Positions 1,664-57,720 of a stretch of 64,000 nucleotides of DNA are shown here, piece after piece (position 1 is the first letter of the stretch; each line of letters opens with the position of its first letter). A program made the position numbers and the translations under genes. The notes beneath the pieces are model-generated. The model was not told where the DNA came from. It was given only the letters and a program-made list of their open reading frames with translations, and did not search any database. Where the stretch lies: assembly GCA_051362555.1 (NCBI GenBank), contig CM120640.1, positions 17,298,001 to 17,362,000 of the forward strand. The letters run 5' to 3'. Source of the DNA: Lingula anatina (Eukaryota; Animalia; Brachiopoda).

Positions 1664-4600
1664 ATGACTGACCTAAGTCTAAGGAAGCAGAAACTGGTGA
1701 AAGAACTTCATGGCATCTTCTCTCTTGTTGAGCAACATGTCCTTGAGGACTTGGTCCATAACATGTGTACTCAATACCCAGAGTCAGATGATAAGGAGAT
1801 TCTGTTCATTTGCTCAAATCATTTGCTGAACAACATTGCCATGGAAACTGATGACAGTAAGTATAATTAAGCCTTCATAAAACGGCCTCAGAAATATTTT
1901 TGCCTATTGAATACTGAACAGTTGCATCAGGTAAAATAATAGTTGGGTGATTTTTAAACATTTAGTGTCTTTCGTTTTTTAGCAACATCACTAGCCCAAG
2001 GTTTATCACAATTAAAGGAATGATCCTGATAAACATACATTGAGTTATAAAATAATATTGTGATGAATACAGATTGTGTGACTAACATTGCTGGTATTAC
2101 TGATTTTTATTTAGGTAATTCCAGTAGTGCCAATACAGTTGTAAAAGAATGTGGGCAGAAACAACAAGTGGATGAGGTGGTAAGTGTAAATAACTTAGGC
2201 AGTATTCAAAGAATACTTTTATGTACACTGTATGCTATTTTATTTGATTGGAATATTTTTGACGAGGAGTTCATTGGAAAAGTTTTTACTAAGAAATTGG
2301 TGTTGTGCCAATTCTTGGGCACTAAGAAGAAAAATATATTTAAAAATAGTTGTTGAGTTTCAACATGTGTTTTGTGCTGTATTGGTATTAAGTGTTTTAT
2401 CATTTTTTCCTCAGTTGTCCATATTCCCAGACGCTGACCAAGGGTGGATCCTGCAGCAGTTAACTATAAACGCAAACCACAGGGGTTTTGATGTGCAAAC
2501 TTTGATCAACAGAATGCTGGAGAACAAATATCCAAAGAATTTAAAACCCCCACACACTGGAGCAGCCTCTCTGAAGCCAGCGCACTCAACTAGTGAACAA
2601 AATTCAGAAGCACACAAGAGACTTGTAAGTGGTTTAAATTTAGCTGCTAACGAACCCGGTGTGGTTGGTGCTTCTGTTGTGCCTGACAAACCAAACACTG
2701 TGCAGGACTCAGCTTCTCCAGCATGGGGGAGGACAGGTCAAATGATGTCCAGTGATGTCCAGATTCCAAATGATGTCCAGTTACAGGCTGGAAGCAGTGG
2801 TGCGAGTTTGTCATCCCCTGCAACCAACAACAAAGAAAGAATGGGCAGGAAAAGCTGGAGGCAAGAGGGGCATTCCCCAAAGCGCATATTGGAAAATCAG
2901 GGCCAAGAGCATGCCTTTAAACATGGTTCAGAATCAACCTTGATTAGAAAAAGACTGAAAGTGAAACCACACACGCCTGTATCATCTTCATGTGGGAAAA
3001 ATACTGAGCAGTCAGCAAACTTACAGATGGATAGTAGTTTGCACCTTGGTCAGCCATCTAATGGTCATCAGAAGAGTGATGAGTTCGGGTCATTATTCCA
3101 GTCATTATTCCCTCCACATAAGCATAAGGTTCCAAGTGCCAACAATAATACCACCGTTTTAAAGCAAAGAGAAGTAATGCAGCAAATGAAAAGGTTACAG
3201 GAAATATTATCTTCACATGAAAGCCCTTCTTTGCACCAAAATTCTGCTTGGCATAGAATTTTTACTCCGCAGAATGCACCAACATCATCTAATTCCACTC
3301 ATGGACTACCCTGTTTACATCACAGTCAAAGACAACATCACCATTCTACTGCTGAGAAATGCACCCTTACTCCAGATTGCAATTGCCTGGTTGGCAAGAA
3401 AAAACTTGTTAAGGGGCTATTTGATGGGAAGTCAAATCAGTGTTCGCCTATGAGAAGAACAATGCCAGTTGGGGCCGAGAGTGGAAGTCAAAGACCTGCG
3501 ACCAAGCCACTGAGGTCAGAGGCAGAATTACAAGGGCTAAAGGTCAGACCACCAAGGTTGGAGAATTCGACATCTTCGGCAGGGCCTAGCACTAGTAGGT
3601 CAGTTAGCTCAACAATAAACCCCAGTCGTTCCAATGAGCAGCATGACAATGATCCCAAAGAAAGCCTGTTGAGTGAAAGCCGAAATCTAAGGTCGGAGAT
3701 CAGATTACAAGGTGGGAAAGACGTGCCACCTAGGCATAAGAATTCAACATTATCATTAGCAGCATCCAGTACTAGTAGATCAAACAGTCAGATAATTGAA
3801 CAGAGAGGTTTTGATGAACTGAATGATAGTGATTCCAAGGACAGTTTGTTTTCTCTCGAACCATCTTCTGCTGAATCATCTTCAGATGATGACTGTCTCC
3901 CTGATCTTGAACCACAGAAAGGGGCATCAACCACCTCAAAAGTGAATCATGCACCTGCGGGTGCAAATCAGAGGTCTTTAGGCAGTCAAGTGGCCAAAGG
4001 ACACAACTTTGATAAAAGCGATATTTTTTCAACCATAAGTGTTCCCAAAGCAAGTGTCATGCACAATGTGCCTGGCATACAAAATGAACCTAGTAGTAGA
4101 AGTCCACGCTCTTTTGTAGTACTTGATCTTACAGAGGATGATGGCACTACCATGACAGTGGAAACAACTGATATGGTACATGTAAGTGGAAGTCATCTGT
4201 TGGCAGGGCAAGAAAAATCTCCACTGGTAGATAAAGAGAGCAACAGTAACCAAATAGATGGTGTGGCAGGAGTTGACAGAGCTGGTGGTGAAAGTATGAT
4301 ACAAGAAGATGCTGAATATGGTAGTGATGATGGGAATATATCACCTCTGGATCCAGGTATTGGCAGTATTTATGTTTTTCTCCCCCCTCTCTGTGTCACA
4401 TTCTGTTTTACAGTTTTCATTATGATTGTTGTCCTGGAAGAAAACCAAGAGATTGAATAAGGTTTGGAAATGAATGTAACTTATGTCTGAATGTTTCTTG
4501 CATATTTTCTTGTACCTGAAGCAACATGTTGAGTTTTCACATTTCATCATGATTCTAGATTCCTTTGAGATGCCGTGTGAGAGTTGCAGTAGGAGGGAGG

Positions 4601-7600
4601 CAATTAAAAAACTGATCCAGTGTTTTGATGGTCACCTTTCCTGTGCCAGGTGTGTACAAGATGAGGCCAAGGAAGCAATTACCGGAGATAAAAAGGTAAA
4701 GTGTTTGATATTTTTCATTGCCAGTAATTTCAGTACTATATATAGATAAATGTGCATTTTAAAAATAATGTACCCTTTGCCAAATATTTAAGTTCCTCTG
4801 ATAACACTATTTATACTAGTAGTTTCATAAATATTATTAAGACTTTTTGTGAAAAAAATACCTGGCTTTTACAAAAATAACCATTCAAAAATGTTATATT
4901 AAAATATCTATGCTCAGGGATCAAGACTATATTGACCTGTTCATTCATAAACTCTTAAGAACTCATTTCTCGCTAAGTATAACTCATTACCTGCATTGCT
5001 TTTCAGGGTTTATTGAAATGCCCTAAGGATGGTTGTGATTGTCTAATGCCAAAAGGTGAGTATATTTTTGTTGCTTGCAAATTATTGTATTGTTGACAGT
5101 AATGTAAGCTACTTTTAATAATTATAATCGATAAGGTAAATGTACAAAATGTTAACTGCTTTTCTGCCAGGTTGCTTCTCAATTTATACTTAGCAACAAT
5201 TTTTTGGCACATAGCAAGCATTTAGTCCAGCAATCTGTCTTTTTACTACATATAATTACAAATAAAATATTAGGTTTTGGAATCGTGGTTATTAAAATTA
5301 TTGAATTTTATGTTATAAGAACATAATGCTTTGGACATTATTTGTCATGACAATTAAATAACATGAAGAAAAACATATAATTTACCTGACTGAAATGTTT
5401 TGTAGAATTGCTAACATCTGTGCTGCCCGAGATGGTGTTGGACCTGCTGGAAGAACAGAGACTGAAAGCAGAGAGGGAACAAATTGTTTGTATGGATGGC
5501 ATAGTTCAGTAAGTATCATAGATAACACCTGCTGGGTAACAAAATACTCTTATTATGAAACAGGTTTAGGGTAAATTTCATGAGTTGAAAAATATGTTTT
5601 GATAACTCTTTGTAGATAAAATTATTCTGATGATAAGCAAGTTGACGAGTAGAAAGTTGATAAAAGCAACATGCATTTTATGGACAGAAATTGATTGATT
5701 TACTCTATATGCTATGGTATGTCCTGCCTAATTCTTGTTAGGCATTGTAGTTTTACTTCACAATAATAAAAAGGTTTTGTTTATCTTTGAAACAATCAAA
5801 AGTTTTTCAGAAATCTAAATATTGGTAATTTTTAAATTGTGTTATTCATATCAGTGTGCAGTTGCTTTTCATTTGATATTATTATTCTTCATCAGGATGG
5901 ACACATTTTTTGTATAGGCTTGCATTGTTTTAAATAGAGGCAGTGCAATGCTTTATTGCATTTGTTACAGATGTCCATTTTGTGAATATGCAGCAGAGTT
6001 GGATGCAGCTGTGAGGGTGTTTGCTTGCCAGAACACTGGTTGTTTTAAGGTATGAAAATGCTTAAACACAATTGAAAGTATAATAATAGTTAAAGATAAT
6101 TAAAAAAATATTTTTAAAAAATTAAAATACATAAAATCTAATATATTTATTTTTATTTAATTATTTAATTTTTTTGAGTGACAACCATTTTCAGAAGGTA
6201 TTTTAATGAAGTTAAGAAATAGTTTATTAATTGATAAGAGCATTTTGTAAACCATTTTAATGCTTTAAATGATAATTTAATTACATACAGTAGCAGTGTA
6301 ACTAAGTTTTCAATGGGATATTTTAGCAGCTGAAAATGTGGTAAATGAGGCTGGTTTTCCATTTTAGGAAAGCTGCAGATACTGCAAAAGTGAAATGTCG
6401 ATTGGAAACCACACAAACTGTGGCAATGCCCAGCACATACCAGTGAATGAAGCTGGAACTACCAGAGAACCTGACACCTGGGAGGAAGCTGATACAAAAG
6501 AGAAGGTAGACATTTCTAACATAGTTAATACCATAGTAGAGGTCAGGAACAAAAAACCCAAATATGGGGAGCCTTGCCTATATATACGCTAAACATGAAT
6601 GCCTGTTATACTACACCACATTGAGTCTTTAGATCTCAACTTCTTCCTTGGTGTTAGCTACATTGCTTGTCTTCTTTGCACTGGTGTATATTGCATTCAC
6701 CTCACAGACTCTTGGTTTATCAAGTTAAAAAGTTTTAGAAAAAAAGTTGCATTGTTTGTTCATCGTAATATCATGTACATGTAATTTTCCTGTGAAAAAT
6801 TGCCATCCTGTTGAGAAAGAAGACTGAAGTGTTTTTATCTTTGGAAAAATAAGATTCCAGTAGGTAGTAATGTCATTACTTTATAATTTTAAAAAATCCT
6901 GGTTAATTTCTTTAATTAGGTAGATTTTTTTATTTGGGATACAGTTGCAGTTTAAGTTAAGGTCATTGAAGCCAGTGTTGGATGAGTTTCTTTGTTAACA
7001 TAGAATTGAAATGATTGTCTTATGATGAGTAACATTAAAATACATCTTGTGCATGGTCTTGGCAGGGCTTTGCATTAGTCCCAGTGGAAAAATCTAAAGA
7101 AGAATATAAAAAAGTGGAAAAATTGTTCTTGCGAACTCTCCCGAGATGCACTATTCTGTCCATTCAGAGGTTACAGAATCCAAAACTATGGCAAACGTAT
7201 AGTCTGTAAGTTGTTACTATATTTAGCAGTTAATTATTTAATCAGCCTTCGGACTTTCAATAATATCTAACACATTAGAATACATAAAAAAAAAATTTGT
7301 GTGTATATGTGTATATTGTAAAAGATGGACCCATTTAAGGTAAACTTCTAAGATGATCTGTCAGTTAAAGGTATCATGCCTGTTACTCAAAAATACCAAC
7401 TTGAGACTGTTGATCTTTAGAGTTGTAGGGTTATTCTGCTTCAATCAACAATGTGCACAAAAACAAATGTGCAACCCAAAGATGTGTGTATTGCATGTAC
7501 TAAAATGCAACCTATGTGCATGTTTTCTTCAGTCAGAGGACACATATGCTGGAAGAAAATGGACTACAGAACCTTAATGAGATGAGGCTGTTTCATGGCA

Positions 7601-9213
7601 CACATCAGGCAAATATTGATGCAATTTGCAGACAAAACTTGGACTGGAGACTGTATGGGAGGAATGGATCTGTATATGGACAAGGTATTTAACAGTGCAT
7701 ATCTTAAGGAACAGTGCATATCTTAGGGGTCGTCAATATCTGTATATATGGACAAGGTATTTAACAGTGCATATCTTAGGGGTCGTCAATAAAACATTCC
7801 TGTACATTTGGTTACACTCAAAGTGAATTGAAAACCAAGATCACTCAATAGTGTACTACCCCCTACTGCTCGAGGAGGCGTGTCTTTCAGTTTATCTAAC
7901 TGGTATTCAGCAAAAGTCCAGGTGGAATTGGTTCAATAAATGTAGAAGGATAGTTTTATTAGGAATGCCCCCTTATATGCTACTGAACCATTATGCCATT
8001 AAGTTTAAAAAAGCATAATTACACAGTGTATTTATGTGTATGTAATATTTGTTTGGGCTAAAGGGTAGAATTAAGGTATATTTGACTTTGTTTTCCAGGC
8101 ACATATTTTGCCAGAGATGCCAGTTATTCCAACAAGTATAGTTTTCCTTTTCATGGTGCACATGGCTTGTCAACGTTAATCAGAAAAGTCAGAAGTGGGC
8201 ATGGCTTCAGGCATGGAGTTACAGCAAACAAAATATTTACACAGACCAACCAAGGTCCTCTGGTGGTTAATGGTATTGCACAAACCAACCAAAATGTGGG
8301 TTCCAATCCTAGTGCTATGCAGACAAACCAAGGAACAATTTCTAATCATGGATTTATGCAGACCAACCAGGGTGCAGCTGTCAATTCTGGATTTGTGCAG
8401 AACAACCAGGGTGCAGCTGTCAATTCTGGATTTGTGCAGAACAACCAGGGTGCAGCTGTCAATCCTGGATTTGTGCAGAACAACCAGGGTGCAGCTGTCA
8501 ATTCTGTATTTGTGCAGAACAACCAGGGTGCAGCTGTCAATTCTGGATTTGTGCAGAACAACCAGGGAGCAGTTTTTAATTCTGGATTTGCACAGACCAA
8601 TCAGGGAGGAGCTTTTAATTCTGGATTTGCACAGACTAACCAAGGTGATAGGTTTTCACTTCTGTTAGGGTTGCCCCAGGGTCAAAGAGATGCAAGACAA
8701 GGCAATGCAGTTGCGACAGATGCGAACAAGCAAAGCCATATGGCCAATCTCCAAGGAAGAAATATCCCTAAGGGATACACATTAAGTCTTCCTTCACCTG
8801 GCATGTCTCAGCAGTCTGCTTCTACATCTGCCAACCATGCTGGACCCTCAGGCCTTTCTTCTGGTAGCAACAGCCAGACAATATCACTGGGGCAGGCGTT
8901 TCATGACCTTTTCCAGCAGTCTGCAGCACGTTTCCACACCAGGCAACAAGCCACAGCCGTTGCTGCTGTTCACCATGGAAACATGGGGCAATGTGAGACA
9001 GAGACCGGAGGGCCTAGGTATATGTTTGTGGTACGCGTCCTTGTGGGGAGATACACTAGGGGAGATATATCCATGAGGAGACCACCCCCAATCCCTGGTG
9101 ATCCGCATAATAGTCAGTATAATTCATGTGTGGACAATCCGAATGACCCCACCATTTATGTGATCTTTGAAAAGTCTCAGTGTTACCCGGAGTATATCAT
9201 TGAATACAAGTAG
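1664..9213 (+). CDS. RNF216-like CUE/RING1/IBR fused to TiPARP/PARP12-like mono-ADP-ribosyltransferase (11 coding exons)
   Basis: Phase-compatible GT-AG exons at about 1664-1856, 2115-2179, 2415-4357, 4559-4695, 5007-5055, 5406-5508, 5971-6049, 6368-6504, 7066-7205, 7533-7684, 8099-9213. RING: CESC..QCFDGHLSCARC..CPKDGC. IBR: CPFC..CQNTGC..CRYC..HTNC. PARP motifs: IQRLQNPKLW, LFHGT, YGQGTYFARDASYS, YMFVVRVLVG, SCVDNPNDPTIYVIFEKSQCYPEYIIEY. Confidence 0.85.
8239..8646 (+). repeat. 39-bp coding tandem repeat (about 10.5 units of xQ(T/N)NQGAAVNSGF) inside the PARP domain
   Basis: Near-identical units gtgcagaacaaccagggtgcagctgtcaattctggattt in the centre, degenerate at both edges. Confidence 0.95.
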
Positions 9214-9559
9214 TTTCAGATGTATATGGATGTGGTATGAAAAAAGTGTTAGGTAATTACGGAAACAGGATTTCATGTTACATATTCAGATAAATACTTT
9301 TATTCACTTAATTTGCATGGATCATATGCAACATTTAATCAGATTAAGATTTTAACTCAAATGTTACATCATGACTTTTAACTTTCTTCATACATGTGGG
9401 AGGATATTATCATAAATGTTATACCTTTGCAGTGTTCATACAGGTTTGAAAGTGCTTTAATTTAGCTTTGCTCCCTATATTCAGTATACAGCCTTAAAAA
9501 GAGTTTGAATTTATCACCTTGTCATCATCAAGACCAAAATGTGTAAGGCCTTAGGTGCA

Positions 9560-10420
9560 CCCAGGCTTTGACATCTGCTCTCCATTTCACACTAGCTTAA
9601 TTTTGCCACCTTGCCTCCTGTATGATGCAACTTGTCCATTCCCTGATGTCATCCTTTGGGTCCTCATAGGCATCCCTTGAAACTTTTTTCTGCTGTAGCA
9701 GCTTTGAATTAAAAATTCTTTTGACATCTCTTTTTATTTGATGTCCAAAGAACCTTAGTTTTCTCTCCATGATAGTATTTATAAAAGGATTAGGGGTCTT
9801 AGAGTCCTAGTAATTTTGGTCTTTTTTCTGTCCAGCTGATACCCAGCAATCTCCTTTAATTTAAAAACCATGATCTTTTTCTTCATTTTTTTTCTGATAA
9901 AATCCAACTCTTGCACCTGTACATTAAATGCACTTAAAACGCATTGAGCTCATTAGTTGGATCTTGTATATATTAGATGAATTTTCCTCACTCTCCAGTT
10001 TTGCCAATGCACTCTTAACTGCTCCAAATCTTCTTTTTAACTGTAACTCACTTATTGCATTTTCAGTGAAGGTAGCACCTAAGTGTTTGAATTCTTTGAC
10101 ATGTTCTAGGTCTTATCCATTCAGTTGTACTTTTTGGTGTTTACAATGCCCTAGCTTACCTGTAATCATAGCTTTACTTTTCTCTGCACTTATTTCCATG
10201 AAATATTTCTTTGATGTTGAATCTAATCTGGCAGTCAAATTCAAAAGTTCCTCCAGATCCTGTAATTTCAAACCTCTTTCATTGTACCAGTACCTACTCC
10301 ATATTTTCCTGCAATGCTTTCCCAATTTTCATTCTGCATGTAACAAATCTTTGCATTCCAGTCACCTTGTAAATCATCACCTTGGAATTTTGTCAAAAAA
10401 ATTTTAATTTGGCAGTTTCT
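9560..10420 (-). mobile_element. Degraded non-LTR retrotransposon (RTE-like) reverse transcriptase C-terminal fragment
   Basis: The minus strand reads MEISAEKSKAMI..VQLNG*DLEHVKEFKHLGATF..AVKSALAKLE and later RKLRFFGHQ. These match typical late-RT motifs (I(N/S)xxKTKxM, FxYLGS, LRWFGH), and the frame contains stops. Confidence 0.75.
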
Positions 10421-12027
10421 GACAGTAATTTGCTTAAAGACAATAACTTTCGGAAGAGAGGTTTACCTTGTTTTGGACATTATGTTATTTTATTCTTTTC
10501 ATAATTCACAGTACTTCATAAATTGTTTCATCACTGTGTAAAAATGCAAAGCTCACATGGTGTCTTTTTTTCCCTCTTGTATGTACACGTATAGTGTAAA
10601 GTAGTACATATTTATTTATAATATTTCACTATGTTTAGGCAGAATGTTAGGCCTATCCTTTGTTCCTTTATTTATGGTTATATTATGCTTAAATTGTATG
10701 GAATAAATGGATTGGCATTTATAAAAAGTTGTGTACTATTTTTAAAGCTTTTAAAAAGATTTTTTCAATAGTCCCAGCAAACCAGAAAATTCAATTTATA
10801 TCAGGAACACTGGTCTTTAAGACAATTTACAAATGACCCGTCACTATTAACTAAATCATTGACAAACCTGACCTCTGCCTTAATACAATGTTTGTAAAAA
10901 GTTTTCTTTAGAAGGTGGCTATTAAGAGATTATTTCCACTGTCAAATGTTATATTGTCAACTCCACCCATGCATTTACAAAAAATTACAACTTCATCCAA
11001 ACTTAATTGATCAAGATAATTTTCGAACTAGTACTATGAATCAGTCCTGCAAGTTATAAAGCAAAATGTGACATGGTTTTCATGTTATTTGTATAACAGT
11101 AGATGAAATATGCTGAAAAAGAGAAAAAAAAAACAGCAAAACTTTATGGAAAAATGGTCTGATCAAGCTGATTTTTGAAGTCCACTTGTATTTTATAAAT
11201 ATTCATGAGTTTCGTAAGTTTGAAGACCAAAGGTAAAACGATTTTCCACTCATCTTGTTATCACTGAAATTGCATGGGAACGACAGAGATGACAAACGCA
11301 GGTGATGGCTCCCATCTCCCATGAAAATGCACAAATTCCCAGACTTCAATAGTAACTTTTCTCATCATTTCTTTGGTTTGGGAAATATCAAGCATTTTAT
11401 TTTTTATTTTTTAATTTGGACAGGGGTGCATTGTGACTAATGCCATACCATACTAGTGCCGTACTAATGCCATACCTAGGCCAGTGCACTGACAGTGCCC
11501 AAAATTTAAGTGGATCAAGTTGTGACCTAAATCCAATAGAGGTATTCTTTAAATGGTCATATACATTGGCTACTCAATATGTTACCAGTAGATTATTCTT
11601 CATTGTGATGATCAACTCATTTTTGCCAAAAATAGTTACTTTATTATACTTGTTATTCATGCCCCTAAGACATTAAACAGACAGACTTGTTAGGATAAAT
11701 GTTATACACTTGATTATACAATAGTACAAATTAATAGCAATAGTAATATTACTAGGTGTTTTTAAAAATCATTTTTCTGGAATATAAACATGGACTTTTA
11801 TCAATTATAAGATATCGATAGCAAGTTACCTAATATTTTTCAAGGCAACCTTTCAATATCCTGAATATATTACAAAAGACATGTTAATAAGAAAATGGTA
11901 AAAAAAAGTAAAATGTAGAGATTGTTCAGATAAACCTATCACACTTGCTGGATCAATCCAAGGAGATTTTCCCAAAGTGTAATCACTGTAATCGCCCTTA
12001 ATGCCTAACACTCCTCCTCTACTTGCT

Positions 12028-12054
12028 TGGGGGGGGGGGGGGGGGGGGGGGGGG
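12028..12054. repeat. poly-G tract
   Basis: Run of about 26 G. Confidence 0.9.
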
Positions 12055-13015
12055 TAATTAACTAATTAGCTCGTTACTCGAGGAGGCATGTCAGACACTT
12101 AAGTCACTTAGTACTGAATGCACTTAAGCAAGAATCTCTCACAGAGTTGATTGATCAAGCTGTATGAATCTGAACACAGTCGTAGACTTCACATTCATTT
12201 GGTCCAAACAAATTACATGTATGCAAAATATTAAAATAATGTATAACGTACATGAACACACAGACACACATTTTACATAATTTGTTTATGATTCCAAGCA
12301 AATAAACAAGTGACAAATTTTGAATAATAGCATTCATTTACACATTTGATTTGCTCACTGTTAACAATAAAATTATGCTTAAAACATATATGCAATATAT
12401 CACAGCGCAATTGGCATTGAAGCAACAACAACACCTTAATAGAACATAATTATGCAATAAAACAATTTATGTAGATACAGTTGGCCTAAGTTGGCAACTT
12501 TGGTCCCAGCTGGTACAGTTTCAAAACGTTAGGGATCATATTCTACCTACCCTGGCAAAACTGAGTCATGTTTGGAAACCTCCTCACTGACAGATAGCAA
12601 CCAAATATTATCTTCATATTAACACAGTGGGTCTAGTAAAAGAAAAATGGAACAAAAAAAAAAAAAAAAAAAAGAAATCTTTCAGAATGATTTACCAGTC
12701 CAGTCACAAAGTACTGGTAAATATCTACAAGCCTGAGAGACACAGGCTTGTTAATAGGTCTTGTGCACTCACAGCTTCAAAGTACTACGATCCATTTACA
12801 TGTATCCATTTACATGTACATGTAGTAAATAATGGTGGCCATACTATGTTGTCAGGGAGGCAAGCTGCTATTTAAAGAATTTTGAAACATTAGGGTCTCA
12901 TGCTACAACTTAGATTATAGTTAATTATTGTTACTGTTCTCCACTTGCAAAAATCCCAGTACTAAGTAAAAATGCCAGATGTTACTAAATGGCAAACGAC
13001 AGCTAGGTTTACCAT

Positions 13016-16000
13016 TTACGGCTCCAAAAGACTGTTAAGAAATTCCTCATAGGATATTTTTCCATCTAAATTCTTGTCAAACTCTGACATGATATGATAT
13101 ATATCTTCTTCAGAGACATTGAGTCCACAACTTTCCAAAACTCGACGGAATTCGATCACTTCTAGGTATCCACTGTTGTTCAAATCATTCTTCTTGAAAG
13201 CACGGCGCAGGCTCTTCCAATCCAGCAACAGCTGTAATAAAATGTCACATTTCATTACTTTAACTTAAAAACATCAAAATTTTAACATTTGAAATGATCA
13301 TTCAATAAACTGGACTATCCAAACAACTTGATTGTACTGTATAGAGGTTGACAATGATGTATGAAAAATAATAATAAACCAAAAGCTTATTCACAGTAGT
13401 ATATATCTTGCATTGCGAGTACAGAGTAACAGCAAAAACATCCAAATTGTAAAAGATAGCATAGAACTAAATCCTTCAGCTTATTTCTGCTGACAATTGC
13501 CCACCTTTTCTCTGACCCTGTGCAGTGTGGGAACTAAGGTCAGTGTCTCCTCCTCTCCATTCTGTGTGCAAGTGTGGGTTAGAAAGCAAACAGCAACATT
13601 TGAAGTTAGTATAAAAAACTGTGCAGACTATTTAAATACCATGTTTTGTACTGCTAACACATAATTTGTTATTTATTAATTCAAGTGTGATTTGATCAAA
13701 TTAGTATTGGATATTTGCTGTTTTATTTACCCCAAACATTCAATGGGCATATTACATACACATGTACATATATTTTTTGTTTGGTGCAACTTCTATAACC
13801 TTACCAATCTTTAAGTGTAGACCAGACAAAAACTGCCACTCTTAGCCCAAAGTATGGTGACAGTTTCACACAAAACACTTTTTCACACAAAACACAAAGC
13901 CACAGCCATGCAGTCATCTATCATATCATTTAATATATATCTTATCTTCTTTGCCAATGCTGCAGATAAAGCACATTATCACCTGTCACTGTCACAACAT
14001 GCACAGTATCACCAGGTAAAATTTGTAACATGTTGCCCAGAACTTTGAGATTTAAACCATGTCACAAAGCTTTCAGTTTCAACACAGTTTAAACAATGTC
14101 ATAATATACCTTTTGCCTTAGTTTATACATCCTGTTTTTATATGCTGAAGACACTGCTTGCTTCTTTGGTGTTTGTGGCTTTGGTGATTTGACAGCAAAA
14201 GCCTGGAGAAATTTCAGATAATGGAACCTGGAAAATTGTGAACATAAAGGTAAATTCAAATTCTTTTTCAAAAGACATTTTGTAGTAAGTAAAGAAAAAA
14301 GTGTTGGAAGTGGATTTTGATAAACTGATATCTAAGAAACAAATACATACAAAAGTATCACTATGATTTTGAAGGAATATCTGTCACTCCATGATTCCAC
14401 ACCACAGAGTTAATTAAAAGAGAGAGAGAGATCTGTCACTTACTGTCCATCTTTGTTCACATCATACTCCTGGCATAATTCTTTAAGTTCCTCTGCTGTC
14501 AGGTTGAAGCCAAGAGTGTTCATACATTCCTGGAAATTTTGATAAATGAAATAAGGTGACGTTTATCATTATCAACAGGAACATGGTTAAAAGCAAAAAA
14601 AAAAAAAAAAAACTTTATTCGATCACCAGTGTACACATTTATCCCTTATTCAGAATATCATGGCAACTATAAGTCAATTCTCTACCATTAACTTCACTTT
14701 AGTAAACATGGCTATGCTAGGGAATTTTACAGTTAGAAAAATGTCACATGAACCAGGTGCACTGTCACAAAATACAACAAAATACACACAATATACACAA
14801 AATACAACTCCTTCACTCCTGCACCTAGCAAACTGAGAGGTTATGCACTGTCACATTTTGTGCACTGTCATATTTAGTAAACTTTGACACCTTACACACT
14901 GTGACACAAACCACCTCACCCATCCTTACCTTCATTTCAGTACAAGGTACATATGCTGTGCCAACTGTGTCCAAGTTTTTAAAGATGAACTTCAGGTGTT
15001 CCCAGTTGGTCAAAACCTAGAATGAAACATGGGCATGTAATATGGAAATTATCCTAAACTGATAATAATCAAAACAAAGGATTAAAAAGTCTTAGAGATG
15101 CATTATTGTATACAAATATTATGTGAATTTTACAACTTAAGAAAACAACATTAAAGCAAATTTAGTTGTCTATAAAAGCTAGAATATCATTTGTCATATC
15201 CATTTTACTCATAGTCAAAGATTGTCTTTATTCTTCTCCTTTTTGCATGTACAGAAAGAACTATATAAATATAAGTCCGAAAAAAGATATGATTTCCTAT
15301 TCAAGAAAAATGACATCCCAAGCTTACATCTGATTTGATCTTATTCATGAGTCCTTCCTTGCCTCCTGAATGTAGCTCAGTGGCAGCATTCTCTCTGGGC
15401 AGGAGAGTATCTAGCTTATTGTCACGCTCTTTTTGCTTCCTTTCTGCCTCAGCAGGAGTCAATTGGGAGGCTTTGCTTACTAAAATTATATAGAAGTTAC
15501 ACTTTCAAAAATCTGCTCATTTAAAATCTGAGCAGAAATGGAAAAAGGAAATTGGAGTAAAATATAGATTAAGTCTATTGTTGCAGTTGCATTCTAGCCA
15601 TGTCAATTCAATTAGAATTCAACTAGTGGTGAAGAATATTTTAACAAGTATCTCTGTGATTTTAGTTTTGAAAAAGGGTGGAAGCAAAATATGAGTACCT
15701 GGTGGTAAAGGTGTTCTACTTTCAGACTTCTCTGGAGATTTTACTAGACCATTTACTTTGACAAATTGTGCCATGAATTTACTCCATGTAGTGAGGTGAT
15801 CCTCAAATAGTGGAATATCTTTCCATACCAGGTCTACCTCTTCTGGTCCAAATCCCAAGAATCTGAATAAAGATACAGGAATAAAAAGCAAATCCTGCCA
15901 AGTCATGATTGAAAATTACACCTATCATTTGCTTGTATGGTGTTAATACCAGAAATCTTAAATTGTTTAATACAACTAGAATTAAGAGTTGCCTAAATAT

Positions 16001-16704
16001 AAAAAGAGAAAACTATCCTCTTGACTTTAAAGTAAGGCAAACCATGAATATGCATGAATATACAATTTAGTGCACAAGTAGAGACAGCTATTTATGGACT
16101 TTAAATTTTTCAATTGATGTCTTACTATTTTCACTTTTAATCAAAAGAAAATGTTTAAATTTTACACTTACTCCTTCAAGATGGCCCCCATCTGTTCTTT
16201 ACTCAGTCTCCCTGTCTGTCTTCTGTCCATTTTTTTGTACAACTTTAAAAGCAAAAGTGTGAAAACACAGGTAAGTGAATCAGAAATGCAGACTCCGTTA
16301 AATTAATGTTTAAATGGTAAGCGCATAAAATGGTTGGGTATAATTTTCAAAACTAACAATGTTTTTTTTCTAGTTTTAGATTCTTCTGGGTTTGTGAAGG
16401 AACTTCACCTAACTTACCTTGTCAACTGCATGGAATTTTTCTTTTAACAGCTGCTTGATTTTTTTATTTAACTGTATGAAAATGAAAAAGAAGCAGATTT
16501 TAAAATAAAGTCATTGCATTAGAAAACATTCAATACTACAATCAATGATCTTTTTTAGATAATCCATTTTGTATCAAAGAACACCTGGTTTTCATGCTTG
16601 AAGTGAGATTTTTTGGGACAAACTCACAACTTCTTGCAGATTGTGGTTCACCATATTTGTGTTTTATGCAAACTAAACATTAAATTTTCTCTGCCTGTGC
16701 CAAA

Positions 16705-16766
<62 letters not shown>

Positions 16767-19700
16767 AAAAGTTTCATCACCAGCACTCTCAGAAGTTCGG
16801 CTCTTTATTTCTTTTCAGTCTTGCTAATAAAAGCTAACCTCTTCCTTTCTTGTAGACCCTTTCTTAATATCTGCCACCTCTTCCCTCTCCTTGGCTTCTC
16901 TGAGCTGCTGTACTTCAGGAGGAGTTCTCATATCAGACACTTTCCTCTCAAGGAAACCTCCCACCGTCTTCTGGTTCCAACCACCTGGGGTACTGGATTG
17001 TATGCAATGGAATGAAAATTGAAGAATGATTTGTATATAATATGTGAAAGTTTTATCGTTAGAGAGACCAGAAAAGATGAAGTTTATTTCTGCTTAATGC
17101 AGCTATATTACTTTGATGCATTACAACTCCCCCTTGAAGATAAATTTTAAAGACAACACATTTATGAATGCCACAACTTTTTGGCTAAAGATCCAAAGCT
17201 TTATTTTGGAAATTAAATATATCCCAAAGAAAAGTGGCTAAAAACACAATTCCTTATCCCACAAAGCTACTAATCAAACAGAAACCCCATAACTAACCTG
17301 CAAGCGAACTGTTCCAGAAATGTATTGTATGGGATCAAACCATCTGCATCTTGGCCTACTTCAGCTTTCAATTTCTGCCACTCCCCATCTGATAGCGTCC
17401 TTTTTAGCACTTTCTGAATGGCATCCCTAAACTCATACTGTGGAATAACACCCAACTCATACCTATCTGCTCCCCTAAATACACCAAAGCAAGGTAAATT
17501 TCATTTTTATCGACTTGGCATTTTCTTTCAATGTCAAAAAAAGCTAACTTTTTTCTAGCACCATATCTTGTTTAAACATTTGTTTCTACAGTCATGAAAA
17601 ATCATGTTTGAGCAGTATGAAAGTTGTAATCAATACCTGAGGGACCCTATCAATGCCAGGAAGTCTTTGTGTAGGAACTCAACCAATCTGGCTTCCAGGT
17701 CTTCAGCCGTCATGTCCTCAGTGAGGGGAGGCAGGGCAGATCTGCTGAACCTGAAACAAAGATGATGCAACACTGTGATTAATATGATGTCTGTAACTGC
17801 ATGCTTGTTAGTTTATATGTGTTTTTACTTTGTCAGTCTGTCAAATATTATTATTTGACTTCATTATTGTGATTTGAGTGACAGTGTGTTAGGTTTTAAA
17901 TGCTAAGTGTGGGGATGCTTTAGTTGTGACAGTGTGTTATGTGTGAAATACTAAATGTTAAAGTGAGGAATTCTTCAGTTATGACACATGAAATGGCCCT
18001 GAATTGTACTTACACATGGAAGGAATCATTGACCACTCTGGACAGCAAGCTTTGATTTGATTTGTTCATATATTTCAACAGCAGTTCATTATAGTTTAGC
18101 TGACCCTGCATGGTTCGGACATGACATCTTTAAAGAAAACAGATGTGTGGTTAGTGCACATGAAGAGTTATCAGGAATGGTGCATCTGAAAGGTTTACAG
18201 TCATGAAATGATAACAGTATTTTTTTTTTTAATGATTAAAAAGATGCAGTGTAGGAACCACTACACTGTAACACTCAATACAATCACAACAAATATATGA
18301 ACAATATACTATATGTATATATATATTTATACCACTGTTGACAATCTATCATTACAAATACTGTTATAGCTAATAGCCATGGGTAACCCACTGTCACATC
18401 TAACAAGCTGTACAACTAACACAATGAAATCTGCTTGTGGCATTTAAATGCATATACCTGGCCAGGAAGCTTTCTAGCTCAATGGAAGATATAGGAAAGC
18501 CAAATGCATGCAGAACTTTTTTCAGGTCTATACGTGCTATGTGACCATCACCAAGGAAATCAAACAGTCTGCATCCCAGCAATAGGGAGGTGTAGTTTTG
18601 CTCAAACTGGAAAATGAGATATATACTTCATGGTCACACAATAATATATCATCTTTTACTACTTCATTTGTTTAAAAAATATTTTAGCATAATTCTGTTG
18701 CTGACTTAGATTTAAGATCATTACACTGTAATTTAAATTGCGTTTTATGTAACTTATACATTGCAGGGTTTTCATCAAAATTTGGTTTATCTAAGTCCTG
18801 ACTGAAAAATGCATATGGCAAACAAGTCACTGAGTGTTACTACTGGTATATCAAAAAGTGATGTCACTTTTATTGCATATGGGCCTTCAAAAAGTTACAC
18901 TAACATTTTAACCATCCAAAAGATAAAATTAAATCAACCTGATAATGCAGACAATCCACAACACTCTCAAGTTTTGGTGTTTCCCTCCTTTTGTTGACGA
19001 CAGTCTTTATTTTCCTCTCAGCTGTCTCCTTTCTCCTGGCCCTGTCTTTCTCATATGCCTGCTGATCTAACACCTCCTCTTTAGGATCAGAAGCACCTTG
19101 TCTCATCTTTGGTCCATCATCTACACCAATCACTTTCTTGAAATTGGACAGTTTGATCCCACCAGTGCCTTCTAAATTAAGTCTAATATAAAAAGTAATT
19201 GATTCAAATTCACAAATATGAAAGGCACTTCCTGTACATTCAAAATAATCATTGGAAAAAAAAACAGCATGTGATGTATTGCCATCCTGAAGTAGCTTTA
19301 ATCACAACAACATGAAATAATCCCTTTGTTTTTTTTTAATGTGATTTTCTTACAATAGATAACTTTCTTTACTGTAGAAATAGAACATTCAACCATAAAA
19401 AATGTAAGGGATAGATTTATGTGCACTCATGAACTGTTTGTAAGTTCTATGCCTGAATGATTTTTCAAATACTTCGGAACTATCCAAACTGCATTAGCAA
19501 CCAACTACATCAATGCAGTCCATTACTTCACTTTTCAAATTTACTTTCTAGAGACAAAAATCAATAGCTAGTCCATTTTCATTTAACCTGAGTAGTGAGA
19601 AGTGAATCAATCTCTACGCTTCAGTACTCTATGTGATTACACTTTAACTTTCAGCTTTATGCACCATGCAAATTCTCATAATTAATCAAAATGGTCTTGT

Positions 19701-22700
19701 CAAACAACCTGTAACTGGAAGGAACACTCCAAAAAGGATATTTGAATGACACATCCTTTTATCAGGTCAATAATATGCAAATAATACACCACATGTTATT
19801 AATGGATCTTTAAACACAGTGACCAACCATAAGCAAAACTGATAAGATCTATCAATGAAAATCACTGCAAGGTTTTGGGCTTAAAGAAATAAAAAAATTA
19901 AGTATATATTACAAGAGAGATGGGGAACCACATATATCAAGGATGCCCCAAACTTCAATCATGGTATTGACTGTTGCAGATGACTGGCTTTTTTCTTTTT
20001 ATTGTATCTTACCTATCCCATAATTTCTTGAACTCATCATCAAAAAATCTCATGCCCAGGGCAGCCATGGCCTCTCTTAGCTGTGGTGGCACTATAATCC
20101 CACGGGGTTCAAAGCATGCAGGAGGCAGAATACGAGACAAATTGAGCTTCCTGTAAGCCAAAGATTTTTCAATATCTTAGCACAAGTACTGAAACAACAG
20201 TGATTAATCACTTGGTTTTTCATTATCAAACAACTCCATTGCAAGTTGCAAAATCATTTCATGATTATTCATTTCTAAAAAAAGTGTGTTTAAATTACAC
20301 TGGTAGATCCTGGATTTTGATAAGTGATAGAATATTGTTCTTGTCTTGCTTTGTTTAGCACACATGTAATGAAAAACTACATGTAGTATGTTTTAGGCTA
20401 TGGGTGTGTTTAGACAAAAACTCCAAAATTTCTGTCTACATGTTTTGGATAACAGATGAATCTTCAGTGTTCACTTACTAAATTCCTTTGTATTTACACA
20501 AATGTTATTTTACCATTGATGTCATAATTGCAACTTTGGGATTTAAAAATGCAAAATCGGTTTATCAAATTTCTACTTTACCTGAGCATTCACGAAGACT
20601 AGCTGTTTCAAAGCCAATTTAATGACACCACTGAGTACTTAAAATCCCTGTGAGGGATTTTTCTTAAAAGTCTTCGTCAGAATTTATTGTTTAAAAAGGC
20701 AAAATAATACCTTTGTTCAATGAATCATTGTAATTAAGGTCTCATAATTCCATGACAAAAAACTTTCAAACCAAAATGACGGCATGGGATTGAAGCCCAT
20801 ACCTTTGTTGGCAACTATGCCAAATTTTGTGATAAGATCTCGTTGAGGGATGAAGTTACACCCTATACCAATTTGCTATCTCACCTCAAAATGGAAAGCT
20901 GTTAAAGTAATGAAAAATGCTTTGAGGTCTTTATGTTTATGCTTAGCAATTAGAAATATAAACTATTTAGTGTTTTTAATTAGAAAAATGGTAGATGTAT
21001 TGCTAAATAATTAGATGCACAAAAAATCATTTTTGGTATTTTGATGGTCGTAAAACCTGAAACCAAAAGGAGAGATAGAGAGAGAGAGAGGAGGGCATGT
21101 CCTCTCTATTCCCCCTCTTGGTTCCACTTATGCAATTATGAACACATTAATGTACATTTTAATAAACCAAATCAAATTTGAAAGCCAAAACCATGAATTA
21201 AATTTTGAAAAAAATTATTTATTTGATTTTGAAAATTACCATATTCCTTAAAGTGACAATTTTTCCTTACCCCATTTTGGCTTTCTCTCTCAGAATCATC
21301 ATGCAGTGTGCTGCTGTGGAGAACTCGTTGTTTTGATGAATACTGGTACTTAACAAATTAACAGAAGTGTGGCCTCTAGGTCCCAAAGTTATTATCTCTT
21401 TCTGGTGTGCAGGGGCCAACCATTCTCTCTGCACAGTCTGAAAGAGGGCAATTATTATTATTTTTTTTTTTTTGGGGGGGGGTTCTATAGATATGCTACA
21501 CAGTCTGTTTTAGCTTAGATTTATTTTTATTGAAACTGAATGTAACTGCAGCCAAATTCTAAACCTTCTTAAAGGATGACTTACAAAAGGAAAAAAAACA
21601 CTCATTCACTCTGCAGAAATTTTGAACTGGATTAAAGATAAATCTGCATAACCATAGAATTAATGAACAGATAATTTTGGATTCCTGATTTATCGTGGTA
21701 TAAGTAATTAATCAAAAGCATTTACCTCATTGTCCTTGAAACATGAGATAAAATCATCAAATGAAATAGACTTTTTGTGCCCTAGACCCAATCTGGAAAA
21801 AAGGGGATATTTGAAGTAATAATCAATAAAAAAAGATAAAAGACATTCTCCAGTTAATTTTTCTCTTGTAACTCAATGCAAAAATCTTTACAAAACAATG
21901 AAAAGAAAACACATAAAATTTTACACTTGGGCAATGATCCTTGCAGACATATTGCAAATTAAAACAGCAGCGTTCTTCATATTATCTGTTTTTTGAAAGT
22001 AAAGTTCATAAAATATTTAGATCTTTTTTTTGCTGGTAAAAAAGTTTTGTTCATGTGACAATTGGGACCTTCCATCTGGGAGAAGGAAAACACACCAACA
22101 ATAAAATCAGAAATTGCATTTCCAACTTCCAGTTTGAAAAACTCCAGCCCAATCAATTCCCCAGCAGACACGGTTCAGGAAGTCACATAGAACACGTCAT
22201 ACACATTAGCAATTGATTTCCCAACATAGCAACATATAAACACCCCATGCTGGGTTGGCAAGAAACTGAGACTGAGTCAGAAACAGAACTTTGTACACAT
22301 TTCCTCTAACACTGCCCCAAGGTTTCTTTTGTGGGATAACAATATGTTAAGCTGGTTTCCATATAACGATCATTCAATCTATTCAAGCAATCTGCAGATC
22401 CTAAGTACATTTGGCAATCAAGGGATTTGTATATAAAATCAATAAAATGTTTGATTTAACTATTTCATTTAGAGTCCCCATAATTGGTACCATTTAAATC
22501 ACAGAATATAAAAAATATAATACAGATGACAGCAAAAAAAAAAAATTATAAAGTTATCTCAAACCCTCAGTCCATATTCTTAAGTCTAAATATCAAAACT
22601 TGGGAATGAAATAATTCATGTCACATGTTCCATATAGATTTTCTCAGCATTCTCAAATATTACTTAACTCATTACTCAAAACATCCAGACCCATGTGCAT

Positions 22701-31200: not shown

Positions 31201-34200
31201 AATTAAAATAAATTTTGCATCCCTCTCCATAGAAACAGACAAAATAACACTAAACAGGACCTCCTATGGACTAATTACTTCTTACTATGGGGCATGCACC
31301 TACATACTGTAAATCACCTTACACGGTAACTGCCACATTATATAACCCTTTTTTCTTTAATTGACCATAAATTAACATGACATAACCATTTACTGTCTGT
31401 GCACAGTACACTGTATATTTTTTTCTCCCACTGTAGAGAACATATGATCAAACACTTGGTTCTTGGGAACTATTTAATACTGACTGTTTCATCTGGTCAG
31501 ACTTAAAAGTGGAGTTGAAAAAAAAGCAGCCCTATCCTTTAACTACCCTCTCAGTGATTGGGAAGGTTCAAACCACCCATGGGACAATGGCCCCTCCTGG
31601 GTCACCCTTAATGGGCCATTTTGCATATCAATGGGCCATTGATTGACATTTATGGGCCATTTTTAAACATGACAAATATATTTGAAATATCTGTATCAAT
31701 ATTTTTGGGAATGATATGATAAAGTTTTGCAGTTAAACTTTGTTAATATATTTATTTAGTTAAGACTTTTATTTGTCTTTTTCAATAAAACCATTACAAT
31801 GCCTTCTTTACTGAACTTATTTGAAGACTAAATGAAAAAACAAAATGATCAGAAAACATGTAATACTCATTAGTAATTGGGTTTTTATTTGATGAAACCA
31901 TCAGCAAGAGGTAAACAATCTAGATCTCTGAAAACCTTGATTTCTCAAAACTGAGAAAATGTAAATGAAATTGTCTGCACATTCTGTCTAGTACTTATTA
32001 ATCAGTCTTACTGAAAAAGAGATTTCCTTACTTAATGAAGTAATCTCTTTTTCCTGCGCCATACATTCAGTGCATCCTCCTAACTTATCTTACTCCCAAG
32101 AATCTTAACTCTTAGCAGGTGATTCGCAGAACATTTTCGTTTGGGTGCTGTCGTACTGGAGCTAGGGCCATAGTTGAAGCCATCGGGGTTTGAAACCTCG
32201 TGCGACCTGAGAGTGAGAGGTGCTAGCACTAGCAGTAACACTACTGTCAGTGTCACTACTACTTGTTGTAGTGCAAGGACTGCTGCTCTCAGAAGTTGGT
32301 ACATTTTATTCCCCGTCTCCTTTGAGACTTTCCTGAACTTAGACGAAGCGGTTGAAGTACATAAACTAACAAATGTAGGCTAGTCTGGCAAGTTTTTAAA
32401 AATCTTTTTCGGCAGCATTTCTCTTTTCACTTCATCAAAGTGCTGCTTGAAAAAATCTCATGTGCTTTCAGAAAGAAAAGCAAGGTTACTTCTGGATAAA
32501 CATGAACTATAAACTGATTGGCCAATAAGATATCAGCTTTTATTTCATTAGCAAAGCTATTGGGACGATGAGCTCATTGCTCTTGGCAAACTTCGGCGAT
32601 TGCGTTCGATAGCTTCCGAATTCGTTCCTGAGACATCTTCAGGTATGAGAGGAAAATTACGCTAATCACTTGACGAATAGTTTATTGACGAGTAGACTCT
32701 TTTTAAAAACGCGAGGCATAACAAAATCACGCGCATTTATGGCGCACAAACAGGGCTTTTTATGCGCCCAGTTACGATTCTATGCGCGTATGGCGCAATG
32801 GCCCGTTCCTTCCCAATCACTGCCCTCTATCAAGATGGCAGATATTATAGGCACATTTTCCACATTATTTTATTTATTTATTTATTTTTTGGAAATGTGG
32901 AAAATGTGCCTATAATATCTGCTCCCCTGATAGAAGGTAACCTTAAACCATCCCTCCAAAAAATATAAAATGTGGTCCTTACCTTTAACCATCCCATATA
33001 AAAGATAAACTGCAAGATGGTGAATATGGGGATATAGAAGTCAATCTGATGGTTATCATAACCCTGCTGTGGATCCAGGAACTGTCTCCCCATGAGACAG
33101 GAAAGGAAGAAAGTGTATACAGCCATAGTCACAACCTGGAATATTCAAAACATATGAAATGAAAGGAAAAAAAAGGTCATAAAATTCAATGGCATCAATG
33201 GTGAATAGTGTGTTTGCCCACATCAGATGAATTTCTTCAAGAAAAATGATACAATAATGTCAAATTATTGCAAAATATAATTTGTGTACATTTTCTAATA
33301 ATATTTCAATTAATAATATTAAACATGTCAAAGATATGCATTTGTACAAAACACTGAATATTTAATCAATAAAGAAAACAAAACTAAAGGCCTATGCATC
33401 AAAAGCTTTATCAATTAATATGACATAACAGAATGCTATTTATATCAAGCATATAAATAAATTAAATTCTGGAACTCTGTGGTAAGATTCAGAGCCAAAA
33501 TACTGTGGTCCCATACCTGAGACATTTCACGATGTAATGACCTGGTGGGACTGGTCACCTCTGTAAGTTTGTTATTGAATTTCAGGGGCGGATTTAGGCC
33601 GTCTTCTGGGTCTTCCGGAAGACGGTCAGATTTTCAAGTTTACATTGACGGGTATCCAATTTTTCATGTTGGAAGACAGTCAAAATTAGAGGGTGAATCA
33701 ACAAAGATAATTTGGAAGACTGTCAGAAAATAGCTCTGGGTCGGCCCCTGAATTTTACCACATAATTCTATTCATATCTATTTTTAATTCTAATTCTACT
33801 GGATGACTAAGAACACAACTCATTCAAAATACTATCTGCTTTCATAACCATATACCTGTGTATAAATCAGAGGAACATTTATCCAATCATAGTTTAACAA
33901 CCCTCCAAGCTGCCCTCTTACAAAATTTAACTCCTGAAAAATAAATACAAGATCAGATGATGTTTTTGTTTTCAAATGATCATGGATTTTCATTTCTTTA
34001 CATATTTTATTCACAAAAGAGCATTCCAACAAGGGCTGAAGGCAGATTTTATACCTTTGGTAAGCAGTTACTTTTAGCTTCTGCAGTATGAAGATTAATC
34101 TGCTAGTTTATTTAATGTTTATTTTATCAAAGGTGTATTGAAATGTAACTTCATTGTACCTCCACTAGGGTCTTCATGGCAAAATCATCCCTAATTCTTC

Positions 34201-37390: not shown

Positions 37391-38182
37391 CTTCGACGTC
37401 CTACGCAAGTGCCAATATCTAAGCACGTGTGGTGAAGAAGTAAAAATGGCATTTATTCGAGTGTGGAACGTTGAGGGGACTTGGAAAGTGCATTGCACTG
37501 GAAGGTAATTAGAATAATTATTATTATAAGATTACTGTACACAGTGATTAAACTAACTGCTGCTGGCATAACCAATGGGAATGGGGTTTGGGTGATGTTA
37601 TCAAAGCTATGGCTTCTATGGCTTCAGCTCCATGGCTTCATTTGGTTTGTATATAAATGCAAGCCTTGCAGGAGAGCGTAAACACTTGCTTGCAGACTTT
37701 TTAGAAGAGAAGACATTGTTGTTTCCTGCATTCAGATTACCAGCACTTTTGATATATGTAAGTACAATGCTAATGTGCTATTTTCTGGCATGTTAAATTG
37801 TTACTACCCATGTATATTTGATTTACCACGTGCTTTCATTCTTTACTGTAAGTTGTAACCAGTAACATATTAAACATATGGACTTCTCATATCTATGCCC
37901 ATAATATATCTATGCTTAATTTTTAAACATTGCTTATTATTGTTTCGTGTAAATTAAAAGTTGCAGCTACCTTGTAACAGTGAATTATATTATCTACCGT
38001 AATATTTATATGAACAGAGTATGATCTTGTTAATAAGTGTCTCATTCAGTAATGGATATTATTTTTTTTTTCTTTTGGGAAGTTTGGCATTAAACAAAAT
38101 TTACAGTTTGACAAAATGCTCTTATTTTTTAACTTTAGACACTTTCCATTATATTTTGCAGCTTAATTATTGTACAAGCACA

Positions 38183-40491: not shown

Positions 40492-40885
40492 GTTAGATTG
40501 AAAAGTTTTGATTGGTGTCTGATAAAACCATTGATTAGATTCAAGCCTTGTGTTTAGTATCTTGTGATGAAGTACAGTTGGAATTTGTTGATTTCAGTAT
40601 ATATAGTTTCATATCAGGTGTCTTATATTAAAATTGAAATGTGTGCCAAGGTCTAGAGTTGTAAAAGGCGCAGAAGCGAAAAAGACAAAAAAGTAGTAAG
40701 TTTTATTGAAAAGTTCAGTGTTTAGATTAGTTTCTGATAAGATGATCGAGTTGGAATTTGTTGATCTCAGTATATATAGTTTCATATCAGGTGTCTTAAA
40801 TTAAAATTGAAATGTGTGCCAGGGTCTAGAGTTGTAAAAGGTGCAGAAGCAAAAAGAGACAAAAAATGTAGTAAGATTTATTGAT
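40397..40885 (+). repeat. Three tandem copies of the PHD-coding 3' end plus adjacent 3' UTR
   Basis: atatcaggtgtctta..gtgtgccaaggtctagagtt..gtaaaag..gcagaa..aagagacaaaaaa..gtaag at about 40400, 40611 and 40784. Confidence 0.85.
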
Positions 40886-40906
40886 GTTTTATTGAAGTGT
40901 TAAGTT

Positions 40907-41040
40907 TGGTTTCCAGTAAGGCCATTGATGATGTAGGTTACAGTTCTTTATTTCAGTTATATAGACCTCCAATATAGGTTTCCAATAAGGCCACTGATGA
41001 TGTAGGTTACAGTTCTTTATTTCAGTTATATAGACCTCCG
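40907..41040. repeat. 69-bp direct tandem duplication
   Basis: ggtttcca.taaggcca.tgatgatgtaggttacagttctttatttcagttatatagacctcc occurs twice. Confidence 0.9.
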
Positions 41041-57700: not shown

Positions 57701-57720
57701 TGACATTGCGTTAACCAGCC

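Follow-up and report, generated by a model that had tools for sequence, protein, structure and literature searches.

A Lingula anatina gene joins an RNF216-type RING1-IBR half without RING2 to a PARP12-like ADP-ribosyltransferase domain

The gene described here lies in a stretch of 64,000 nucleotides from the brachiopod Lingula anatina (assembly GCA_051362555.1, contig CM120640.1, positions 17,298,001 to 17,362,000 of the forward strand); this whole stretch is called the window, and all positions refer to it. Six-frame reading and splice-site fitting yielded a single frame of 1370 residues from 11 exons on the plus strand (1664-9213), and all 10 introns were GT..AG with compatible phases. As shown in Table 1, the frame encodes two helical bundles, a long low-complexity arm, a RING1-IBR unit of the RBR ligase type, and an ADP-ribosyltransferase (ART) domain of the PARP family, and lacks the catalytic RING2. 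An earlier reading of the letters alone (the sequence-only reading) had let the gene begin at 4559; all the motifs it named were found in place, but the gene starts at 1664, approximately 2.9 kb upstream. The product was 97.3% identical to L. anatina LOC106178183 (XP_013416716, hereafter P0001), from which it differed by substitutions at scattered sites, an indel of 3 residues, and a single repeat unit of 13 residues. P0001 is annotated as 'uncharacterized', a bland label that it owes to Pfam, which reports only the PARP domain in it. A local duplication (7685-7790) involves the end of exon 10 together with the beginning of the next intron, with a possible second donor downstream.

Table 1. 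Exons, motifs, and repeat array of the fusion gene (positions in the window)
Feature	Position	Strand	Content
Exon 1	1664..1856	+	start codon; first helical bundle, CUE-like (weak); no meaningful Pfam match
Exon 2	2115..2179	+	linker; beginning of second CUE-like bundle
Exon 3	2415..4356	+	CUE-like bundle (IFPDAD 2421-2438), then ~600 low-complexity, likely disordered residues
Exon 4	4559..4695	+	RING1 zinc ligands 1-6 and central helix; RNF216 is the best match
Exon 5	5007..5055	+	RING1 ligands 7-8; C-x4-C loop
Exon 6	5406..5508	+	RING1-IBR helix (helix 71-89 of structure model)
Exon 7	5971..6049	+	IBR ligands 1-4
Exon 8 (fusion exon)	6368..6505	+	IBR ligands 5-8 (6374-6421), 16-residue linker, PxxW start of ART (6470-6481)
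Exon 9	7066..7205	+	N-terminal strands and helices of ART; long helix with fusion-specific residues begins
Exon 10	7533..7684	+	long helix ends; catalytic His in FHGT (7591-7602)
Exon 11	8099..9213	+	triad Tyr; ~290-residue Q/N/S/G-rich insert within ART; triad Ile (9154-9168); stop codon
39-bp tandem array	8349..8647	+	7.7 copies, 13-residue unit, within ART insert; RefSeq allele has one unit more
RING1 motifs	CESC 4576-4587; CFDGHLSCARC 4621-4653; CPKDGC 5019-5036	+	
IBR motifs	CPFC 5972-5983; CQNTGC 6026-6043; CRYC 6374-6385; HTNC 6410-6421	+	
ART motifs	PDTW 6470-6481; FHGT 7591-7602; IYVIF 9154-9168	+	third triad residue is the I of IYVIF

RNA reads from four (X1, X4, X7, and X8) of the nine runs for the species were mapped to 6290-7255. 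The exon that completes the IBR was spliced directly to the ART exon, the joint 6505>7066 being crossed by 30 reads in three of the four runs (X1, 6; X4, 0; X7, 9; X8, 15), and loose read ends extended into exon 7 (11 and 7 reads) and exon 10 (3, 8, and 21 reads). The junctions of exons 1 to 7 and the 10>11 junction are based on the frame and on the match to XP_013416716. The proposal of one transcript linking the IBR to the ART was thus borne out, and the alternative of two separate genes was rejected by the RNA join. The IBR end and the PxxW start do share one exon, as had been read from the sequence; this exon ends at 6505, not at 6504, and the linker has 16 residues, none of them Cys, instead of about 15.

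In RNF216 and in P0188, a full-length relative, a helix and then RING2 with the catalytic Cys come after the IBR. Both are gone in the fusion proteins, which break directly after the last IBR Cys. In the four RNA runs, no splice joint led into the intron 6506-7065, where a few unspliced reads gave a depth of at most 2-fold. Inspection of introns 7-10 and of 9214-20000 revealed no RING2 motif. No RING2-like tblastn match was obtained near the gene (best E value in the whole window, 5.5), although this is a weak test in which the true RING1 and IBR exons scored E values of 0.06-6. A hidden RING2 exon was rejected by the RNA reads, the intron sequence, and the tblastn search. That the IBR is a RING2 in disguise was rejected as well: the domain can be aligned with the IBR of RNF216, and no Cys lies between its ligands 2 and 3. 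RING2, whose absence had been claimed, and the donor-ubiquitin helix before it are therefore both absent from the gene.

The RING1-IBR half is of the RNF216 type. When a profile of eight fusion RING1-IBRs was compared with solved structures, RNF216 was retrieved at an E value of 7e-25 and the next, ARIH2, at 5e-08. An AlphaFold2 model was made for P0001 residues 731-1380 (mean predicted local distance difference test [pLDDT] score 53.8, low over the insert in the ART), and its RING1-IBR matched RNF216 (PDB 8EB0) with a Foldseek E value of 8e-10 and 33% identity. The resemblance to RNF216/TRIAD3 first noticed from the ligand spacing is thus also found in the sequence. RING1 has its eight zinc ligands and the RBR-type loop, and its fold matched RING1 of RNF144, HOIL-1, ARIH2, HOIP, and parkin with Z scores of 6.6-9.4. 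The IBR of the Lingula protein also has eight zinc ligands; Pfam did not recognise the domain there, although it detected it in 5 of 11 relatives.

For the ART half, the best solved match was PARP12, with a Foldseek TM score of 0.87 on the target despite the insert that splits the domain. The insert of P0001 comprises 305 Q/N/S/G-rich residues after the helix of the nicotinamide-stacking Tyr; across the fusions its length ranged from 4 to 622 residues, and it was often FG/GF-rich. The H-Y-I triad that had been proposed was located in full. Residue counts here and below refer to 44 proteins with a full RING1 motif, taken from 49 fusions among 204 proteins with near-identical cluster members and fragments left out. 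The triad His and Tyr were present in 44/44, and the third residue was I in 38, V in 3, M in 2, and R in 1; the zinc ligands and the NAD-site residues were intact. Ile at the third position goes with mono-ART activity according to PMC2964712, and judged by its triad the protein is likely a mono-ADP-ribosyltransferase. Pfam detected no WWE or CCCH domain in P0001, in 11 members, or in the fusion proteins among a set of 15 scanned. DTC was likewise not detected in the Pfam scans of P0001 and its relatives, the RING present being of the RBR RING1 type, and these scans revealed no WWE-like or DTC-like ADP-ribose reader.

To collect the family, word searches were combined with a single profile search across 1.84 billion representatives. 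The profile included the whole Lingula ART, and the best 150 of 7701 rows at an E value of 0.001 were fusions and PARPs, with no RNF216, so that distant fusions may escape it; a word search with the RING1-IBR alignment returned one full RNF216 relative, P0188. Among 174 proteins, 47 had a RING1(-IBR) match, which was followed by an ART in 46 and truncated in one, and none had RING2. Part of the matches could be assigned to an organism, and each of these was lophotrochozoan: a brachiopod (Lingula), an annelid (Owenia), a chiton (Liolophura), bivalves (Saccostrea, Pecten, Mizuhopecten, Ylistrum, Argopecten, Pinctada, Sinanodonta, Solemya, Dreissena, Ruditapes, Mercenaria, and Mya), and gastropods (Haliotis, Gigantopelta, Patella, Biomphalaria, Bulinus, Physella, and Bradybaena). 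An accident confined to Lingula was rejected by these members in a brachiopod, molluscs, and an annelid. The databases label the proteins automatically, e.g., 'RNF216-like' or 'PARP12-like'. In the ESM Atlas, one low-scoring cluster (0.79) was retrieved, a PARP with Mollusca commonest, which we take as a lead only. The fusion gene is real, expressed, and conserved.

Two old subfamilies were distinguished. Subfamily A keeps RING1-IBR-ART, with all eight IBR ligands present in 18 of 19 members; subfamily B keeps RING1 and the next helix, has lost the IBR, and has linkers that differ greatly in length. Pinctada and Haliotis carry both. For the ART tree, near-identical cluster members and fragments were again left out, which gave 165 rows, and IQ-TREE was run on 70 of them, leaving aside P0021, P0024, P0026, P0177, P0190, P0191, P0204, and 88 other PARPs. 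The branch supports were 93/83 for A and 99/97 for B, and A and B together lay on one side of a branch at 83/91. Lingula was the first branch of A, and the tree neighbours were mostly CCCH/WWE-PARPs. The simplest reading, as we infer it, is a single fusion predating the split of brachiopods, molluscs, and annelids. One Argopecten protein, P0028, is nested in A and keeps the CUE-like bundle and the ART, and its RING1-IBR is lost. A further protein, P0149, has Mind-bomb-like ZZ, MIB_HERC2, SH3, and ankyrin repeats followed by PARP, with no RING in Pfam; it parallels the fusion gene in that the catalytic end of an E3 is replaced by an ART.

Upstream of RING1, two helical bundles were seen in Lingula and Haliotis. 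In the model of the Haliotis protein P0031, the counterpart of exon 1 is a three-helix fold (residues 2-65), and the second bundle carries an IFP motif (IFP, MFP, or WFP among members). A profile seeded from subfamily A detected this second bundle in 21 proteins out of 204, each of which either belongs to type A or derives from it. The CUE pair of RNF216 binds K48, K63, and M1 ubiquitin chains (PMC7458406), and the joint retention of the CUE-like bundle and the IBR in A fits ubiquitin binding, though the seeding may explain it. In the Sinanodonta fusion member P0030, an additional RanBP-type zinc finger (below the cut-off) lies upstream of the CUE-like bundle.

In RBR ligases, as described in PMC9834252, RING1 recruits the E2 and keeps the ubiquitin-charged E2 (E2~Ub) open, the helix before RING2 binds the donor ubiquitin, and the RING1-IBR helix together with the IBR makes up an allosteric ubiquitin site. 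On either side of the second RING1 Cys, the residues were hydrophobic in all four reference RBRs (C/Y in RNF216, C/F in P0188, I/Y in ARIH1, and V/M in ARIH2). The same two positions were never both hydrophobic in the 44 fusion RING1s (S/S in Lingula); the position of RNF216 Y519 was aromatic in 0/44, and that of C517 was occupied by 12 different residues. By the alignment, these E2-contact positions are eroded in the fusions relative to RNF216. The zinc ligands were kept, and the central helix of RING1 was newly conserved, with E at +2 in 34/44 and K at +6 in 39/44. Fusion-specific residues were also found on the long ART helix (P0001 numbering): 946 was aliphatic in 44/44 fusions compared with 23/120 other PARPs and 952 in 35/44 compared with 16/120, 954 was acidic in 43/44 compared with 10/120, and His950 was present in subfamily A in 26/26.

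A complex prediction of the RING1-IBR with the ART of Haliotis P0031 gave an ipSAE of 0.49, compared with 0.02 for the best of three controls, which is weak support; at least 76% of contacts agreed among the runs, and the partner pLDDT was at least 80. In a benchmark, 51 of the 78 pairs with a solved structure attained the threshold, as did 2 of the 108 mismatched ones; scores of 0.60 or below comprised only 5 of the 78 solved pairs and all 4 mismatches that passed. Recall of a similar complex by the predictor is unlikely, because no solved match seen here joins RING1-IBR and ART. In the snail clade with K at +2, no charge swap between this position and the ART was seen by eye. The eroded E2 face, the new conserved residues on RING1 and on the ART helix, and the weak complex support together suggest that RING1 may have exchanged its E2 face for contact with the ART.

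Our preferred reading, to which we give a probability of about one half, is that the protein is a mono-ART with a docked RING1 module, which in subfamily A would be steered to ubiquitylated targets and would have no ligase activity. In a single event older than the divergence of brachiopods, molluscs, and annelids, a duplicate of RNF216 would have acquired the catalytic exons from a CCCH/WWE-type PARP, and a later duplication would have given A and B. In RING1, the E2 face would have been lost and a contact with the long helix of the ART acquired, the docked RING1 becoming a regulatory module. In A, which includes the Lingula gene, ubiquitin chains bound to the CUE-like part and to the old allosteric site of the RING1 helix and IBR would localise the enzyme and may switch it, and the low-complexity arm and the insert would favour condensates.

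Several observations weigh against this reading. The Haliotis P0031 bundle matched CUE structures with Z scores of 5.5-5.9 (1otr, Z 5.9, root-mean-square deviation 1.6 over 44 residues), on a par with unrelated bundles. Pfam reported CUE in 4 of 11 members with a best E value of 0.011, below the cut-off, and the CUE-like profile matched no subfamily B protein, and failed to detect several A members as well as P0188, the full-length relative of RNF216. The rows behind the residue counts are not independent, since they contain near-duplicates and since the 120 PARPs used for comparison are related among themselves. For P0062, which supplied one of these 44 RING1 rows, the motif script set the register wrongly, with the aromatic count unaffected. 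The RNF216 reference consists of two full sequences, none from a mollusc or brachiopod. Moreover, C517A was without effect on RNF216 and mutation of Y519 merely lowers discharge (PMC9834252), and position +4 of the RING1 helix is His in ARIH2 and hence not diagnostic. The Lingula protein lacks two ART residues typical of the fusions (T943 and S1348), and the monophyly of A and B together is not starred in the ART tree. The complex prediction was run with the Haliotis protein and without an alignment, and its score lies in a range more often wrong than right, for which no contacts are given.

The rival that survives best holds that the RING1(-IBR), through a new binding partner or through dimerisation, recruits substrates for an ordinary mono-ART, with no role of ubiquitin. 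RING1 and the following helix are the sole unit kept in both A and B, with the conserved surface residues E+2 and K+6, and the CUE-like parts are patchy. An internal contact is instead indicated by the corresponding fusion-specific residues of the ART helix and by the complex prediction with its weak support, and the near-complete retention of the IBR ligands in A also speaks against it, which leaves this rival rather unlikely. Unlikely too, and put forward tentatively, is a ubiquitin-gated ART, in which K63-type chains at the RING1-IBR helix and IBR would move the docked RING1 and turn mono-ADP-ribosylation on. The RBR switch, whereby ubiquitin on these two elements straightens the helix, would have been rewired. 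If true, ubiquitin-to-ADP-ribose signalling would take place in one chain conserved across lophotrochozoans, the reverse of the known PAR-activated (poly[ADP-ribose]-activated) RING ligases.

The sequence-only reading had proposed that the RING1-IBR may bind E2~Ub and present it to an ART active site. Spelled out, the RING1-IBR would still hold E2~Ub open and bring the thioester or the ubiquitin tail to the ART site in the place of RING2, the product being ADP-ribosylated ubiquitin or E2, or a ubiquitin-ADP-ribose adduct. This proposal was weakened and now appears improbable: the E2-facing positions of RING1 are eroded and variable, the donor-ubiquitin helix is missing, B does without the IBR and has very different linker lengths, and the Deltex precedent requires no ART domain (PMC12687431). 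Still less probable is a role of RING1 as an ordinary RING-type E3 that would attach ubiquitin to ADP-ribose or to the proteins marked by the ART, a hybrid-mark writer in one chain. PARP and Deltex E3 pairs do so in trans in mammals (PMC12687431), and the RING fold appears intact in the model; on the other side, RING1 of RBRs holds E2~Ub open (PMC9834252), the loop is C-x4-C instead of the two residues of canonical RINGs, the E2 face is eroded, and the DTC-like or WWE-like reader is missing from the Pfam scans. A RING1-IBR in decay as a mere relic, or an ART reduced to a pseudo-enzyme scaffold, as the losses of the IBR in B and of the RING1-IBR in P0028 and the very long insert adjoining the Tyr helix might hint, is hardly credible given the zinc ligands and triad His and Tyr kept over three phyla, the insert length that ranges from 4 to 622 residues, and a split domain that still has a PARP12-like fold.

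Compared with known systems, the fusion resembles RNF216/TRIAD3 (PDB 7M4M and 8EB0) in RING1-IBR spacing and sequence, the upstream CUE-like bundles, and the long disordered arm, but it lacks the IBR-RING2 helix, RING2, and the catalytic Cys, has not kept C517/Y519, and has an ART after the IBR. It shares the H-Y-I ART with mono-ARTs of the PARP12/PARP7/PARP11 type (clade 3E of PMC2964712), PARP12 being closest; unlike them, it has no CCCH/WWE and possesses the RING1-IBR, the long low-complexity ART insert, and the family-specific residues of the long helix. If the preferred reading holds, it would be analogous to PARP10, in which ubiquitin-binding modules are carried by a mono-ART (PMC2964712); PARP10, however, has UIMs and RRMs, has no RING1-IBR, and its ART was a weaker match than that of PARP12. 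Ubiquitin-system domains and PARP also occur in one chain in the fungal UBCc-PARPs of clade 6A, a Dictyostelium U-box-Macro-PARP, and UIM-containing PARP10 (PMC2964712). None of these has a RING1-IBR, and PMC2964712 does not mention IBR or RBR. The likeness to PARP9/DTX3L that had been drawn, and to PARP14 or PARP7 with Deltex E3s, holds in that ubiquitin machinery is physically linked to an ART; it is loose, as those are separate proteins in which the Deltex RING-DTC does the chemistry, the fusion has no DTC, and PARP9 is not the catalyst of the ubiquitin-ADP-ribose reaction (PMC12687431).

By domain content the protein is neither an RBR ligase nor a PARP12 orthologue. A RING1-IBR-PARP architecture without RING2 was not found in the openly searchable full-text literature, in line with its not having been recognised before, though subscription surveys of animal RBRs or PARP architectures and supplements could mention it; among PARPs fused to ubiquitin-system domains it is apparently undescribed. 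Lophotrochozoans, among them farmed oysters, scallops, clams, and abalone and the snails that host schistosomes, thereby gain an old PARP subfamily that automatic annotation hides. The three states (RING1-IBR in A, RING1 only in B, and neither in P0028) constitute a natural experiment on RING1-IBR without RING2, and the family offers a small testable case of ubiquitin/ADP-ribose cross-talk hard-wired in one protein. Since other fusions of PARP with ubiquitin-system domains are already known, the surprise is limited. An immune or stress role is a guess by analogy with the biology of PARP12 and RNF216.

Elsewhere in the window, several diverged copies of a repeat of ~200 bases lie upstream of the gene (1-1210), and a decayed frame with several stops lies directly behind it (9640-10520, minus strand); the motifs of this frame resemble those of a LINE reverse-transcriptase remnant, with no support from Pfam. 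Bestrophin exons were found at 33800-34900 (minus strand). At 38000-42600, a DDE_Tnp_4 transposase (41509-42588, minus strand) faces a frame with a YqaJ nuclease and a PHD finger (39040-40488, plus strand), a transposon-like pair in which both are long open frames. On the minus strand, 45800-51100 contains exons of an ADAR-like gene with matches to adenosine deaminase and dsrm, and on the plus strand, 57700-63300 contains those of a FAD-dependent monooxygenase (FAD-binding matches) that resemble MICAL.

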